Positions 2,123-41,433 of a DNA stretch of 50,968 bases are shown piece after piece; positions within the stretch are counted from its first letter, which is position 1, and each line of letters starts with the position of its first letter. The stretch covers positions 1-50,968 of the IMG/VR virus record IMGVR_UViG_3300020711_000014; one strand, written 5' to 3'. Under the pieces are notes generated by a model, which was given only the letters and a program-made list of their open reading frames with translations, was not told where the DNA came from and did no database searches. This DNA comes from a virus (lineage: Duplodnaviria > Caudoviricetes). Position numbers and translations under genes: made by a program.

Positions 2123-2160
2123 TTTTAGCCTTTTTAGGTGTTTATCAAAGGTTAAATTTT

Positions 2161-2651
2161 ATGGCAATAATGACAATATGTCTAGTTTATAAAACGGTAA
2201 TTTATAGGGGCGATAGATGATGACTAATAGTTTTTTGCAAATTGTCATTTTTAAGGGGTTTTTAAAGTTTTTTGGGTTATGTTTTGGGTTATGTTTTTGG
2301 GGTTTTGACCTATTGGCGGGGGCTTATAGCTATTAGCTTATAGCGGGTTATTGGTCAAATTGTCATTTTTTATTTATTTATTAGAATTGGAAATATAAAA
2401 AATAGGGTTTTTACAATGTTATCGGCTAGCGGTTTAAATTGCCATGGCAATTTAGCCTATTTAGCCCATGCCATTTTGACCATGCTATCAGGCGCAAGTT
2501 TTGGGCTATTGGCTATCAGATAAGAGCTAATAGCTAGGGGCTTTTTTAATCTAGGTGAATTTTGATCGCGCCCCGCTCCGGTTTTAAATTTCAAGCCGAT
2601 AGCCCCTAGCTTATAGCTTGTAGCTAATAGCTAGCATATGACAATTTGACC
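2161..2651. repeat. Dispersed GGTCAAATTGTCAT repeats; candidate origin/iterons
   Basis: Exact at 1707-1720, 2353-2366, inverted 2638-2651; degenerate at 2170, 2237, 2444. Confidence 0.6.
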
Positions 2652-2721
2652 TATTGTTGTTTGACATAACACCGGTTATACGCAACAAGCTAGCAGCTTT
2701 TAGCTAAAGGCTTATAGCTAG
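2320..2721. repeat. Four arrays of 7-bp-phased nRGCYnn units
   Basis: 2320-2347, 2503-2544, 2593-2634, 2687-2721, e.g. tagctta tagcttg tagctaa tagctag. Confidence 0.85.
2659..2686 (-). other. dif-like XerC/XerD recombination site
   Basis: Minus strand GTTGCGTATAA-CCGGTG-TTATGTCAAAC; 11-6-11 layout, each arm 9/11 identical to E. coli dif. Confidence 0.75.
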
Positions 2722-2850
2722 GGGTTTGCAGGGCGATAACGCCCGCTAGCCCTTATTCTATATGCGCCCGCTTTTTTGCCATATAAAATCGAAAAAGGGG
2801 GTCATTAAAATAGGTGGGTACGATGATGGGGTTTTTTATTCTATAAAATA

Positions 2851-3080
2851 TGCAAAAAAGTGTTTTGCAAAGTCCAAAAAATTTTTGTAATTTTTAAAAC
2901 TAAGTTAGCAGTCACTAACATAGCTAATTTCCCGATCGGGAACTTTCTTGAAATTTCATGCACTTTTTCAACATATATTCCCGATCGGTAAATTTATGTT
3001 GAAAAACAGCCCCTAGCCCAAAACTGTCATATATAAGGTAAACCCTAGCATCTTGCATATTTAAGGGTTTATGCTAATAT
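2851..3080. promoter_or_regulatory. Cluster of operator-like palindromes and putative late promoter upstream of terS
   Basis: GTTAG-N6-CTAAC 2904-2919; TTCCCGATCGGGAA 2929 and variant 2978; TTGCAT-16-TAATAT 3053-3080. Confidence 0.55.
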
Positions 3081-3109
3081 CGAACCATCGTCAATCTTAG
3101 GAGGTAATC

Positions 3110-34967: not shown

Positions 34968-35951
34968 ATGCCGTTTAAGCCTGTGTGTTCCGATGAAGAG
35001 TTTATTGCGTTATGGAAAAAACTAGGTTCTCCTACGCTTGTGGGTAAAGAACTAGGTATAAACCCTAGGAGCGTCAGTAACAGAAAAAGCGCTATTAAAA
35101 TTCGACACAATATTGAGCTACCTACGCATGGATCATTAAGAGATCCCAAAAAAGAAAAACCCAAAAAAATAGAGCTTGCCCCTCATAACGTCCGAAGAGG
35201 CATAGACGTTGACAAAGTTAAACGCGTTATTGTGTTCTCAGACGCGCATTTTACTGATACCACTACCACGGCGTTTAAAGCGCTGCTGGCAATGATTAAG
35301 AAGTTTAAGCCACAGGTTATCATCTGCAACGGCGACGCCTTCGATGGGCAGGTTTTGAGCCGCTTTCCGTCGATTAATTACGATGCCAAGCCTAGCGTAT
35401 TGCAAGAGTTAGAATCGTGCCGTTATCACCTAGATCAAATCGTTAAGCATAAACCTGCGGGCTGTCGGCTAATATGGACACTGGGAAACCATGATATGCG
35501 CTACGAGTCATGGTTGGTTAACAAAGTACCCGAATATAGCGGCGTAGATGGTTTTAGTTTGAAATACCATTTCCCCGAGTGGGAAACCTGTTGGAGCTTT
35601 TGGATTGGTGAAGAAACCGTGGTCAAGCACCGTTTTAAGGGAGGACGCACTGCGGGTTATAGTAACTTGCTGGCGGCGGGTAACACAAACATCATTACGG
35701 GGCATACGCACGTTCTCGCTTGCCAACCGATTTCAAATTATCAAGGCAACTTTTATGGGGTTCAGACCGGCTGTTTAGCTGATCCTATGAGCCCTACCTT
35801 TGAATATTGCGAAGATAGCCCCAAAGATTGGCGTTCTGGCTTTGTTATGCTTTCGTTTGACCAAGGCAGAATGCTCATGCCCGAGCTAATTATGGTTAGC
35901 GACGAGCAAAACGGCGAATACGAGTTCCGCGGGGAAATTCACGCGGTATGA
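34968..35951 (+). CDS. Calcineurin-like metallophosphoesterase with N-terminal HTH-like region
   Basis: SDAH, NGDAFD, GNHD, GHTH motifs. Confidence 0.85.
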   Translation: MPFKPVCSDEEFIALWKKLGSPTLVGKELGINPRSVSNRKSAIKIRHNIELPTHGSLRDPKKEKPKKIELAPHNVRRGIDVDKVKRVIVFSDAHFTDTTTTAFKALLAMIKKFKPQVIICNGDAFDGQVLSRFPSINYDAKPSVLQELESCRYHLDQIVKHKPAGCRLIWTLGNHDMRYESWLVNKVPEYSGVDGFSLKYHFPEWETCWSFWIGEETVVKHRFKGGRTAGYSNLLAAGNTNIITGHTHVLACQPISNYQGNFYGVQTGCLADPMSPTFEYCEDSPKDWRSGFVMLSFDQGRMLMPELIMVSDEQNGEYEFRGEIHAV

Positions 35952-36295
35952 AAATCACACCTAAAATTCTTGAGTCTATCTATTTGACTTTGGCAAAGTG
36001 TGAACCTTTTATAAAATGGGATTTGCCGCCAAGTGAATTGTGCCGTTACGATATTGTTGACGATCATCAAGTAATGGCTACTTATGAATACGATGAATCA
36101 ATGTCTAAACCGCATATTTTTAGTATCTCTAAAGCTCGCTGCGGTCATTACGATACGGTGGTGCGATCTATGGCTCACGAAATGATCCATTGTTCTAGGC
36201 ACAAATCTGGTAAATGGACGCTTCATGACGCCACTTTTAAACGTAGAAAAATGGCTGTGGGCTTGGAGCTAGGGTTTGACGGTCATGAACTCTAA
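35948..36295 (+). CDS. SprT-like zinc metalloprotease domain protein
   Basis: HEMIH...H..F motif. Confidence 0.7.
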   Translation: MKITPKILESIYLTLAKCEPFIKWDLPPSELCRYDIVDDHQVMATYEYDESMSKPHIFSISKARCGHYDTVVRSMAHEMIHCSRHKSGKWTLHDATFKRRKMAVGLELGFDGHEL

Positions 36296-36743
36296 ATATA
36301 TAAAATTTGCAGTTTTGTAGACATATTGTCGATATATGTACGTTTTTGTCGACATTTTGTACATGAAATGTGTAATTAATTACACATTTGTTGACTTATT
36401 AAACAGTCCTTAAATAACTTAAAGCCTTATTAATGAATCATTTAACATACTGTTGTTATTATTAACATACAGTGCGTTAACACTTTTTCTTACAAAATAC
36501 CCCGTTCGGGAATATTTTCCTATTTTTGCACACTTTTTTATCAATTCTTCCCGTTCGGGAAACTTTTTCTTATGAAGCTGACCTATTTTAAAAACGCTTG
36601 TAAGTGCATGAAATTTCAATAAAAAGTCATGCAAAAATAGGACATTGTTGTCCGATATTTGTATATTTTTTTCATACTTATAGGTATGAAAAAAGGTTCC
36701 GAATTGGAACCTTTAGGTATTAAAACTAATTTTATTTAGTTTT
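36296..36743. promoter_or_regulatory. Non-coding array of diverse palindromic operator-like sites
   Basis: Perfect 24-bp palindrome 36366-36389 plus at least seven other inverted-repeat sites. Confidence 0.65.
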
Positions 36744-36863
36744 TACTATTTTAAAAAACTCTTTAATAGTAGACAAAGTTGACTGTAACCAAAACTCGTT
36801 TACTTCTTTAACGCGCTCTACCAACTCTTCATATTGTTTAAATGGTTTTTCAAAATCAAACAT
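36732..36863 (-). CDS. 43-aa amphipathic microprotein (phasin-like?)
   Basis: MFDFEKPFKQYEELVERVKEVNEFWLQSTLSTIKEFFKIVKTK; AGGAG RBS; own promoter. Not in ORF track. Confidence 0.75.
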   Translation of the reverse strand: MFDFEKPFKQYEELVERVKEVNEFWLQSTLSTIKEFFKIVKTK

Positions 36864-36881
36864 AGCAATCTCCTATTTATG

Positions 36882-36923
36882 TTGCAATGCAATAATTATA
36901 AAACATTATTTTGTAGCTAGCAA
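36882..36923 (-). promoter_or_regulatory. Promoter TTGCTA-17-TATAAT with TTGC-N3-GCAA operator over the start site
   Basis: -35 at 36918-36923, -10 at 36895-36900, palindrome at 36882-36892. Confidence 0.65.
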
Positions 36924-37052
36924 GTACGCTCCATAATTGGCAAAAGCATAGCCCGCGTACATAAAAGCCAAACCGTAGTCGCCTTTAAATAAGTTTTCTA
37001 CAAAAATATAAGCGTAAATTAGCCCTGTAACGACAATTAACCAAGGCGTCAT
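36906..37052 (-). CDS. Small membrane protein MTPWLIVVTGLIY..., 48 aa
   Basis: Hand translation; ATGA overlap with upstream gene. Confidence 0.7.
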   Translation of the reverse strand: MTPWLIVVTGLIYAYIFVENLFKGDYGLAFMYAGYAFANYGAYLLATK

Positions 37053-37279: not shown

Positions 37280-37434
37280 ATCAAAGCATCCTCAAACTTA
37301 TAATCTTCTGCTTTCTTTGCCCGCATGAATTTAAACCACCAGCCTTTACGCAGTGAGCAAATAGCAATGGCTTCTTCACGCCTTGCAGCGATTCGCATAG
37401 GCTGATCGTTTTCGTCAAACACAATGTAGCTCAT
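37276..37434 (-). CDS. Hypothetical protein MSYIVFDEND..., 52 aa
   Basis: Hand translation; AAGGAG RBS; ATGA overlaps at both ends. Confidence 0.7.
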   Translation of the reverse strand: MSYIVFDENDQPMRIAARREEAIAICSLRKGWWFKFMRAKKAEDYKFEDALI

Positions 37435-37943
37435 GGCATTAGCTCCTTAGGTGGTCTATCGTCGCCTTCGGAATAGGTTTTGGCATACAAAGTCAACATC
37501 CGCAAGTTGCACATGGCGTGAGCAAGATGAGGCAATCCAGACTCGGCGTCGTTTTCTTCCCCACGCTGCCATGCTGCTAAATGGCGCATAGCACAAGCAA
37601 ACGGAACTGACCAATCCATGCCTTTAGCCCAGTTCCATGCAGCATACTTTTGTTTGCCATACGCCCAGACCTTAGCTTCATCTTCAAGAGTGCATAAGGG
37701 AATCAAGCTAAAGTCTGGTTTGCCGGTGTTGTATCGAGCTCCAGACCCTTTGGCAGTGCTATTAACGTCGCCAATTCCACCAACCCCAGCGCCACTTGGT
37801 TGCGAATTACCGGCGCCTGTACTAGATAAAGCTTCTGCAATTGCCAAAATAGATTTTTGCGCGTCAACAGGGTCGTATTCCATCACGGCTACGTTGCCCG
37901 GATTATTCGGTTCAAAATGACTCAAAATGTTTTTCCTCCCCAC
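37431..37943 (-). CDS. dATP/dGTP diphosphohydrolase-domain protein (DUF5664-like); start uncertain
   Basis: YNTGKPDFSLIP..YG..KY..WNWAKG..RHL..ESGLPHLAHA. Confidence 0.8.
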   Translation of the reverse strand: MGRKNILSHFEPNNPGNVAVMEYDPVDAQKSILAIAEALSSTGAGNSQPSGAGVGGIGDVNSTAKGSGARYNTGKPDFSLIPLCTLEDEAKVWAYGKQKYAAWNWAKGMDWSVPFACAMRHLAAWQRGEENDAESGLPHLAHAMCNLRMLTLYAKTYSEGDDRPPKELMP

Positions 37944-39180: not shown

Positions 39181-39205
39181 TGCTATTTCCTTTCAGCTTT
39201 TAGCT

Positions 39206-39233
39206 AATGTAACAGATTTATTTGTATTGTAAA
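39206..39233 (-). promoter_or_regulatory. Promoter-like TTTACA-16-TACATT
   Basis: Shares AAATCTGTTACA core with the 1740 site. Confidence 0.5.
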
Positions 39234-39252
39234 GCATTGTGTTGCTTTTTAG

Positions 39253-41352: not shown

Positions 41353-41374
41353 AAGAAATATATCATAAAAAGTG

Positions 41375-41402
41375 TTGCACTCAAAAAATAATCTGTTACA
41401 CT
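41375..41402 (+). promoter_or_regulatory. Promoter-like TTGCAC-16-TACACT for replication operon
   Basis: In divergent intergenic gap; shared AATCTGTTACACT core. Confidence 0.55.
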
Positions 41403-41433
41403 GACAGTTCTAAAGAAAAAAGGATAAAGAAAA

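Follow-up and report, generated by a model that had tools for sequence, protein, structure and literature searches.

Phages are known to counter toxin-antitoxin (TA) modules and abortive infection with proteins, such as Lon inhibitors, or with RNA that mimics an antitoxin. The promoter of the abiE operon is reported to lie between inverted repeats to which the antitoxin AbiEi binds, thereby repressing the operon (PMC3985639; PMC7319586), and AbiEi is also reported to bind AbiEii and induce its inactivating auto-phosphorylation (bioRxiv 10.64898/2026.01.19.700257). HipB is reported to bind cooperatively to the four hipBA operators and to be degraded by Lon, from which a 21-bp operator oligonucleotide protects it, with a half-life of >200 min (PMC3376134). 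On the phage side, PhiTE is described as carrying pseudo-ToxI, a non-coding copy of part of a TA locus that counters abortive infection (PMC3475682), and T4-type phages as carrying PeSLs, composite promoter/terminator motifs that mediate shuffling (PMC2839356; PMC4122927). Here we compare with these systems a 448-nt non-coding block, positions 36296–36743 of IMG/VR record IMGVR_UViG_3300020711_000014, a complete virus record of 50,968 bp (the window) from a lytic, myovirus-like, 51-kb phage. The two most widespread cassettes of the block, H and P, appear to be gene-less copies of TA operator/promoter regions.

Located where two convergent operons meet, the block is made up of portable non-coding cassettes in a mosaic. 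Searches by BLAST and with profiles resolved it into separately conserved modules:

36296–36390: module A, with three TGTMGAYA sites, ACATAT-N7-ATATGT and a 24-bp palindrome
36391–36448: module B, two ~20-nt repeats (CTTATTAAnnAnTC...) 31 bp apart
36491–36572: module H, two 14-bp palindromes
36582–36672: module P, with a core and a tail, both on the + strand
36669–36721, − strand: module T as delimited by relatives; the terminator proper is 36686–36714

The two parts of module P overlap by a few bases:

36582–36646, + strand: P core, with AACGCTTGTAAG, the inverted repeat TGCATGA-N15-TCATGCA (36605–36633; arms 36605–36611 and 36627–36633) and ATG CAA AAA TAG (36629–36640)
36639–36672, + strand: P tail, with GGACA-N4-TGTCC (36640–36653), TTGTCCGATATTTGTATAT (36648–36666) and AGGACA-17-TATATT (36639–36667)

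A scan of metagenome contigs with the P-core pattern returned 112 stretches. At nine metagenome loci, the ATG within the right arm, TCATGCA, opens an intact open reading frame (ORF) of 214–218 amino acids that encodes a DUF6088 protein; among four of these loci examined, AbiEii (PF08843) is encoded next in L217, L268, and L272, but not in L265. Positions 36605–36640 are identical to L217 at 34 of 36 sites, upstream of an intact 214-amino-acid DUF6088 ORF that is followed by AbiEii. The loci with intact ORFs are chromosomal, with genes for AspRS, UbiE, UbiB, FliD, TctC, TauD, a sulfatase, and TauE, and with a tRNA 3′ end upstream in L246 and L272. Their GC content is 0.39–0.44, compared with 0.42 for the phage, and none of the nine contains phage modules or a homologue of any window protein. 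Directly before the repeat, the bacterial loci have a TTGTTA-17-TAATAT promoter, as read by eye. In the phage, the frame that starts in the right arm reads Met-Gln-Lys and then stops, at codon 4. Among 130 distinct P sites, 75 have this three-codon frame (MQK-stop) and 46 have other frames of <70 amino acids; the remaining 9 are intact, and all of these are bacterial.

Genomes of one bacterial order were searched as well. The order, Burkholderiales in the NCBI taxonomy, is that of G012, an Oxalobacteraceae bin, and serves as a sampling frame only. Homologues of the abiEi antitoxin (51%–62% identity) occur in 12 of the 401 genomes sampled, and in 9 of 11 of these genes TGCATGAAA lies between a −10-like hexamer and the ATG (L318, which is cut by a contig end, was excluded). 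A match to 36603–36637 in G060 is directly upstream of a DUF6088-AbiEii pair. Four genome matches fall on 36641–36679, in the region of the P tail. In G173, G299, and G224 the match precedes a DUF6088 gene by no more than ~80 nt (about 30 nt in G224), in a setting of repeated and inverted TGTCCGAWATTTG sites; the fourth, in G292, is between two small ORFs without known identity. Aligned to regions upstream of DUF6088 genes, the tail is identical at 19 of 19 positions in L349, 24 of 26 in L351, and 29 of 32 in L322. Genes for DUF6088 proteins are present in 60 of the 401 genomes, and palindromes upstream, beside the start codon, are a family-wide feature.

From these matches, the P core appears to be an orphan copy of the control region at the 5′ end of an abiEi (DUF6088) gene, with the start codon included and the coding sequence kept as far as the third codon, and the P tail appears to be the operator-promoter region of another, second type of DUF6088 gene. 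The P core and abiE have an inverted repeat in common, which in abiE lies between promoter and DUF6088 start codon, with the AbiEii gene downstream; position and conservation are what suggest an operator role for TGCATGA-N15-TCATGCA. The phage copy differs in stopping at codon 4 and in lacking the −10 segment, and the repeats of Streptococcus abiE (11 bp, N27) differ from those of P in both sequence and spacing.

Module H is present twice in the window:

36499–36512: first palindrome of the copy in the block, ACCCCGTTCGGGAA, containing CCCGTTCGGGAA
36548–36561: second palindrome, TTCCCGTTCGGGAA, again containing CCCGTTCGGGAA, with its center 49 bp from that of the first
2926–2995, + strand: second H copy, palindromes at 2929–2942 and 2978–2991 flanking TTGAAATTTCATGCAC (2948–2963, left arm of the P-core repeat)

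In both copies, H comprises two TTCCCGNNCGGGAA sites with centers 49 bp apart, or about five helical turns, and the two sites and their spacing are kept in 71 distinct sequences. A looser form of the pattern matches at least 120 stretches of viral sequence. Compared with G001 and G002, two of five whole-genome relatives, the second copy is an insertion of ~75–90 nt.

What does H resemble in bacteria? The pattern TCCCNNNNGGGAA-N20-45-TCCCNNNNGGGAA, which describes two TCCCnnnnGGGAA sites, occurs in 20 of 391 Burkholderiales-order genomes, compared with 0 of 391 for a reversed control. Nearly all of these matches have the form TTTCCCG(A/T)(A/T)CGGGAAA, in two or three copies with a 50-bp period (bacterial site starts at 1502, 1552, and 1602); the form in the window is TTCCCG(A/T)(A/T)CGGGAA. 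At 7 of the 10 loci inspected, a gene for an XRE helix-turn-helix (HTH) protein of 86–89 amino acids begins a few bases after the array. Pfam assigns these genes to HTH_3 in L364–L367, and the same N-terminal coding sequence was read in L370–L372. The gene that follows encodes HipA, at full length in L367 and as an N-domain ORF in L364. The other three loci (L368, L369, and L373) are different or coding. Since the arrays are located directly before HTH and HipA genes, we read H as a hipBA-type operator array without its operon, or, more precisely, as what appears to be an orphan operator pair of hipBA type that has kept the native spacing of ~50 bp. Searches with PHROGs and Pfam found no HTH_3 or HipA gene in the window, and H is followed by module P. 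Like the E. coli hipBA operators (four sites, TATCCN8GGATA), H is a short palindrome of TCCC...GGGA flavor repeated at fixed spacing; unlike them, the phage sites have no adjacent hipB or hipA, the spacer is unrelated, and binding to the phage sites is a prediction.

One metagenome contig carries both kinds of operon. At L268:208-5196, hipBA, a Fic-domain gene, and P-type abiEi-abiEii lie side by side beside fliD, forming a small TA island. The hipB operator there is of the type GTATCATATTATATAC, an inverted pair with a faint likeness to module A of phage relatives.

If these sites bind host antitoxins, what would the phage gain? The reading that we favor, and hold tentatively, is that H and P are orphan operators that would bind host antitoxin-repressors, either as a decoy or as a co-opted switch. 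In an infected cell, HipB-like and AbiEi-like repressors of the host would bind the H and P sites, which replication of the phage DNA would multiply. The multiplied sites could hold or stabilize labile antitoxins, could draw antitoxins off chromosomal promoters such that TA operons stay expressed, or could do both. Either effect would blunt TA-triggered abortive infection, with toxin release delayed or prevented. In a weaker form, the sites would make short phage transcripts subject to regulation by antitoxins of the host. Pseudo-ToxI is described as an RNA mimic of a type III antitoxin that acts on the toxin (PMC3475682), whereas the DNA operators considered here would act on the antitoxin-repressor.

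H and P are strongly conserved, and they are spread over unrelated phages without the accompanying TA genes. P is found, once per genome, in more than 100 contigs of phages. The P-core pattern is present once in each of 92 viral stretches, among them contigs that share few or no proteins with the window: L147 (12.8 kb) and L134 (11.5 kb) share none, and L140 (14.7 kb), another type of phage that encodes a repressor, Erf, SSB, and an exonuclease, shares three. Of 93 distinct P sites, 48 are accompanied by a homologue of the 48-amino-acid protein encoded at 36906–37052, and in 40 cases this homologue is convergent with P and downstream of it. This protein is the sole gene common to this phage and several otherwise unrelated contigs.

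To follow the block in closer relatives, we used the neighboring metallophosphoesterase, which has 238 relatives in IMG/VR, 80 of which were fetched. The convergent junction is kept in all of them, with variable content. Among 85 distinct blocks compared, P is present in 81, H in 57, B in 36, R (a module of relatives, described below) in 29, T in 11, and A in 7, the count for P being inflated because most loci were fetched through the P pattern. The relatives keep the motifs but shuffle their order: there are at least 19 arrangements, in which modules are shuffled, inverted, or absent. In 37 of 55 neighboring H-P pairs, H precedes P in the same orientation, and in 14 P precedes an inverted H. 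In five whole-genome relatives, the motifs are confined to one locus per genome, and in some relatives with no gap at the junction the modules are found ~3 kb away, in the control region of a small-gene operon. Module A is identical to L007, L011, and L014 at fractions of 0.89, 0.92, and 0.81, and of its 24-bp palindrome the right arm alone is constant. The palindrome at 36667–36694 has its central 6 nt reverse-complemented in relatives (CTTATAGG versus CCTATAAG); by eye only, TTTTTTCATAC-N6-GTATGAAAAAA resembles the GTATATTTTCATAC-ATG upstream of four DUF6088 genes (L353, L354, L358, and L361). In some relatives (for example L044:5500-5640, L058, L158, L005, and L011), the blocks also contain further iteron-like arrays, with three to five ATTGTAAAGTT units ~21–22 bp apart and two or three of TACCTATA(A/T)GTA, as well as a hairpin, TGAGCCGTAT...ATACGGCTCA.

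Several observations weigh against a role in binding host antitoxins, and some of them are what would be expected if H and P were evolutionary debris, that is, scars of TA cassettes that phages had carried or had exchanged with islands of the host, whose genes were deleted and whose leftovers were spread by recombination without function. The phage P core stops after three codons, and it keeps TTGTAA without the bacterial −10 segment, which would fit a decayed remnant too. In 26 of 76 evaluable relatives, the junction has no block, the genes meeting without a gap or with overlapping stop codons, and the block is therefore dispensable there. In the other relatives the gap is 32 to about 680 nt; over the full range of −15 to about 680 nt, sequence is gained and lost at this junction as at a hot spot. 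Breakpoints coincide exactly with the P-core end, giving 51 types of junction. Bacterial and phage H share just the 14-bp palindrome and the spacing, with unrelated spacer sequence; in L268, which has P-type abiE and hipBA on one contig, the hipB operators differ and there is no TCCCnnnnGGGA site. The exact counterpart of the P core comes from metagenome contigs, and for modules A and B, ~40% of the block, the genomes searched yielded no counterpart. Capsid relatives point to no single host, being found in metagenome bins assigned to three different phyla (Verrucomicrobia, Oxalobacteraceae, and Mucilaginibacter). The function of H and P is read from sequence; titrating an antitoxin could equally release the toxin as restrain it; and, as TA loci are themselves mobile, transfer in either direction is possible.

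We nevertheless consider debris an unlikely explanation for H and P. P is 98% identical in each of three diverged relatives, in which the B-H spacer with its TTAACATAC repeats has identities of 0.90, 0.71, and 0.26 and the H-P spacer of 89%, 14%, and 13%, so that P held where flanking spacers fell to 13%–71%. An identical truncated form at 75 of the 130 distinct P sites, intact copies that number zero in phage context and lie only in the nine bacterial loci described above, several orphan operator types retained side by side, and the two H sites with their spacing in 71 sequences all speak against functionless leftovers.

It is also possible in principle that the cassettes are terminators and promoters of the PeSL kind, which would insulate the convergent operons and drive short transcripts or neighboring genes of relatives, with the TA likeness reflecting borrowed promoters. 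The resemblance to PeSLs, which are known as composite shuffling motifs, is in the short conserved non-coding cassettes, the hyperplastic region, and the shuffling breakpoints at cassette edges (PMC2839356; PMC4122927). T is a real terminator (see below); H before P in 37 of 55 pairs is the order of a terminator followed by a promoter; and P lies upstream of genes in L043, L024, and L135/L137. In a promoter scan of the modules, AGGACA-17-TATATT alone passed, and its bacterial homologue in L349 stands before a gene start. The P core itself has no convincing −10 element. TAnnnT follows the core at a spacing of 16–18 in 14 of 51 junction types, compared with a 7% background, and these are mostly one homologous family. 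Comparison of the modules with consensus sequences of sigma-70, -28, -32, -54, -E, and Bacteroidota promoters gave no clean fit. P also has no preferred orientation, the next ORF being co-oriented in 35 of 80 cases and convergent in 42 of 80, and in the window it points into the terminator with no gene behind it. The H hairpins are weak as RNA (−4.6 and −6.3 kcal/mol, z −0.1 and −1.6). Since they are no more stable than shuffled sequence, we do not read them as terminators despite the T-rich run after each; by eye, H stems in relatives show wobble or disrupting changes only and no compensated pairs.

PeSLs are dispersed in many copies per genome, flanking ORFans, and combine a strong sigma-70 promoter with an effective terminator stem-loop, whereas the cassettes here occupy one locus per genome, have weak stem-loops, and are common to bacterial TA promoters and unrelated phages. 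With the motifs at one junction in five relatives, hairpins like those of shuffled sequence, and promoter elements weak or absent outside the P tail, we did not assign the block to the PeSLs, and a role of the modules as control cassettes of this kind is improbable.

One could also imagine that the block gives rise to one or more small regulatory RNAs, for example a 45–90-nt transcript from P or B to T or H. P does fold, with −18.4 kcal/mol for the + strand and −16.9 kcal/mol for the − strand (z −2.2 in each case), and a structured-RNA candidate, module R, is present in blocks of relatives, often directly after the P core. R is absent from the window, though, and no Rfam match comes near any gathering score. 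At gathering thresholds, Rfam gave no match over the whole window, the best score in 36100–36950 being 25 bits against a threshold of 80. The changes seen by eye in the P arms of relatives are uncompensated and favor opposite strands in different relatives, and the sequence between B and H is not conserved. A small RNA is thus, in our estimate, highly improbable.

Module R is of interest in its own right. It is ~88 nt long (GGGCGTTAAGCCG...CAGCCC) and has 43 matches, 30 of them distinct, with examples at L140:3430-3520, L021:5323-5409, and L074:5312-5400. It often directly follows the P core or the stop codon of a homologue of the 115-amino-acid gene that precedes the block in the window. Two or three helices show two-sided changes, such as UGUA/UACA to AACA/UGUU and UUGGG/CCCAU to GUUAGG/CCUAAC, and a third helix, AAGCCGCC/GCGGCUU, would form a pseudoknot. 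Rfam has no match to R, which was found in relatives only.

How did the palindromes of the block fare one by one? A preliminary description, made from the sequence alone, had listed nine classes of operator-like palindrome. We found all nine in the sequence, with small corrections to their coordinates. Besides those of H and P given above, they and the related repeats are:

36316–36323, 36327–36334 and 36347–36354: TGTMGAYA sites, the first of which was left out of the range first described (36326–36355)
36321–36339: ACATAT-N7-ATATGT, within module A
36366–36389: the perfect 24-bp palindrome, within module A
36430–36444: near-palindrome TTAATGAATCATTTA, inside the second module B repeat
36442–36450 and 36462–36470, + strand: two copies of the TTAACATAC direct repeat, in the variable spacer between modules B and H
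36667–36694: palindrome TTTTTTCATAC-N6-GTATGAAAAAA, whose A-run gives the U-run of the leftward terminator
36692–36714: AAAGGTTCC-N5-GGAACCTTT, the terminator hairpin
36722–36743: AT-only inverted repeat AAAACTAA-N6-TTAGTTTT, which overlaps the stop codon of the − strand ORF 36732–36863

TGTMGAYA has four further matches in the genome, inside genes. The density of different palindromes in this non-coding block is above chance. Counting bases under perfect inverted repeats (arms of at least 7, loop of at most 16), 91 bases of the 448-nt block are covered, compared with a mean of 18.8 ± 16.1 in dinucleotide shuffles, none of 300 of which reached 91, and with a maximum of 67 in 497 other 448-nt windows of the genome. 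The block was also confirmed to be non-coding, with no conserved small ORF, no Rfam match, and no tRNA. ORFs of 71, 39, and 26 amino acids within it are not conserved in relatives, and a one-base deletion in L011 breaks the frame of the last of these. A tRNA scan found none in the block, scans of the relatives for tRNA and Rfam families were likewise without a match, and blastn of the region against a phage collection returned nothing. The view that several motifs recur in the other two non-coding blocks held in part: the TTCCCGNNCGGGAA pair and GTGCATGAAATTTCAA recur, both within 2929–2991, and nothing does at 41353–41433.

The palindromes had also been thought unlike terminators, which is not so for the one at 36692–36714. 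On the − strand it forms a hairpin of −11.8 kcal/mol (z −4.44; none of 200 shuffles as stable) followed by U6 (36691–36686), 18 nt past the last leftward ORF stop. In relatives its stem changes on both sides, from GGTTCC/GGAACC to GGTTGC/GCAACC, and in L015 and L016 the terminator is the sole content of a gap of 50–58 nt between convergent genes. Positions 36686–36714 (− strand) are thus an ordinary intrinsic (rho-independent) terminator of the leftward operon.

With so many unlike palindromes crowded together and no gene for them to control, the block had been proposed to be a sponge for many host metabolic repressors, by which the phage would reprogram host metabolism. Three of the nine palindromes do have bacterial counterparts, namely the CCCGTTCGGGAA pair, TGCATGA-N15-TCATGCA, and the GGACA-N4-TGTCC region; these appear to correspond to TA operators, and one of the nine to a terminator. 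All three motif groups with counterparts map to autoregulatory sites at the promoters of TA (defense-type) operons rather than to metabolic operons. The idea of a decoy therefore stands in so far as three palindromes match bacterial operators, with defense modules in place of metabolic repressors as the targets, and the metabolic version is scarcely credible. The module B palindrome TTAATGAnTCATTAA, present in 6 of 386 genomes compared with 4 for the reversed control, is at chance level, and two inspected matches are coding.

BLAST of the whole block against the 401 genomes hit 17 places in 15 genomes. Among 10 matches inspected, five are inside ORFs and chance-like, and two (L326 and L332) are intergenic, beside genes without known identity; the inspected matches to A, H, and the left part of P are inside ORFs and chance-like. 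The sole bacterial match to module A is 23 nt long, inside a 769-amino-acid ORF. For the TTAACATAC repeats, the 24-bp palindrome, and the palindrome at 36667–36694, there was no counterpart in what was searched, although not every remaining motif was the target of a search of its own. It may be that modules A and B, like the other palindromes, are additional operators with counterparts outside the genomes searched. The three genomes with contigs related to the phage through the capsid do not hold the block. Those contigs, L193, L194, and L195, are short, with capsid identities of 80%–89%, and most likely represent phage sequence placed in these bins in error.

The ORFs of the window form four transcription blocks, at one junction of which the block is located:

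3110–36295, + strand: rightward structural and lysis operon, encoding terminase, portal, capsid, sheath, baseplate, fibers and glycosyltransferases, and also endolysin, a DksA-like protein, the metallophosphoesterase and a 115-amino-acid protein
35948–36295, + strand: last gene of this operon, for the 115-amino-acid protein with an HEMIH motif; homologues are at the same position in most relatives
36732–36863, − strand: last leftward gene, 43 amino acids, from the ORF list
36906–37052, − strand: penultimate leftward gene, the 48-amino-acid hydrophobic (membrane) protein, from the ORF list and translation
41352–36732, − strand: leftward operon of small genes, including an SNF2 helicase, an HNH endonuclease and a MazZ-like dATP/dGTP diphosphohydrolase
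from 41434, + strand: rightward replication operon, with a DUF2800 exonuclease, DNA polymerase A and primase
spanning the record ends, − strand: fourth transcription block, from the ORF list

The last + strand ORF ends at 36295 and the − strand ORF at 36732. Annotation with PHROGs (78 ORFs) and Pfam (48 ORFs) found no integrase, repressor, HTH, sigma factor, or antitoxin family among the ORFs of the window. The HEMIH motif of the 115-amino-acid protein, which has a weak PHROG match and no Pfam match, suggests a small zinc metallopeptidase, which may be SprT-like.

Could the block be a replication origin, an AT-rich site with iterons and inverted repeats for replication proteins or a priming transcript? 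GC content has its genome minimum here, with values of 0.348 and 0.308 in two 500-nt bins compared with 0.421 overall, and direct and inverted repeats are dense. Blocks of relatives contain arrays that resemble iterons (three or four copies of TGTAAAGTT, two or three of TTTACTTTGTTATTGT), and the modules are found in either orientation, once per genome. P and H, however, occur with unrelated replication modules (PolA and primase in the window, Erf, SSB, and exonuclease in L140) and are not co-inherited with them. The junction of those 26 relatives has no block, H and P have specific counterparts at TA promoters, and the 987-nt region at 2123–3109, which carries TAGCTTATAGC-type repeats, is no less plausible as an origin. 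We therefore regard an origin within the block as very unlikely.

That region, 2123–3109, is non-coding and lies upstream of the gene at the position of the small terminase. In addition to its many TAGCTTATAGC-like repeats, it holds AATTGTCATTTTT twice, GGGTTATGTTTT repeats, and the inserted second copy of module H, and it may serve as an origin or in packaging. Elsewhere in the window, AATCTGTTACA(C/T)T is a recurrent motif, found at 1691–1804, 39181–39252, and 41353–41433, with TTGCAC, TAGACA, or TTTACA 16–18 nt upstream; read by eye, these are probably early phage promoters of sigma-70 type with an extended −10 element. The 170-amino-acid protein encoded at 37431–37943 (− strand) has a dATP/dGTP diphosphohydrolase N-terminal domain (PF18909, E 1e-29; PHROG 801), a type of domain associated with phages in which diaminopurine takes the place of adenine. 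The annotated ORFs of the window were not seen to include a PurZ-like gene. At 91–387 (− strand), a 98-amino-acid protein matches Phage_TreK (PF24229, E 5.6e-18), here in a phage of proteobacterial type; the family takes its name from proteins encoded in the terminal repeats of Staphylococcus phages.

How far might a role for H and P as orphan TA operators extend? A bolder version, which we consider doubtful, is that the block is an operator sponge against TA defense. In this version, operators of hipBA and of two abiE types, collected without their genes and amplified with the phage, would capture labile antitoxins and stabilize them, together with their toxins, such that shut-off of host gene expression no longer triggers abortive infection. 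The cassettes would then be a counter-defense toolkit shared by unrelated phages of the same host population, and the palindromes of modules A and B would be operators of further defense loci.

We found no phage decoy or operator-titration locus of this kind in the literature searched, a body from which most subscription journals fell outside the scope; the closest cases known are pseudo-ToxI mimicry and the PeSL cassettes. If H and P do bind host antitoxins, they would represent a third kind of counter-defense, or a form of defense sensing, encoded purely as protein-binding DNA. This would provide a function for part of the conserved non-coding phage DNA that annotation ignores, as well as a natural case of regulator titration by decoy sites. 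It would also mean that intergenic sequence could predict which defense modules a phage meets and hence its host. Even if they are inert remnants, the sites document frequent exchange between host TA islands and lytic phages.

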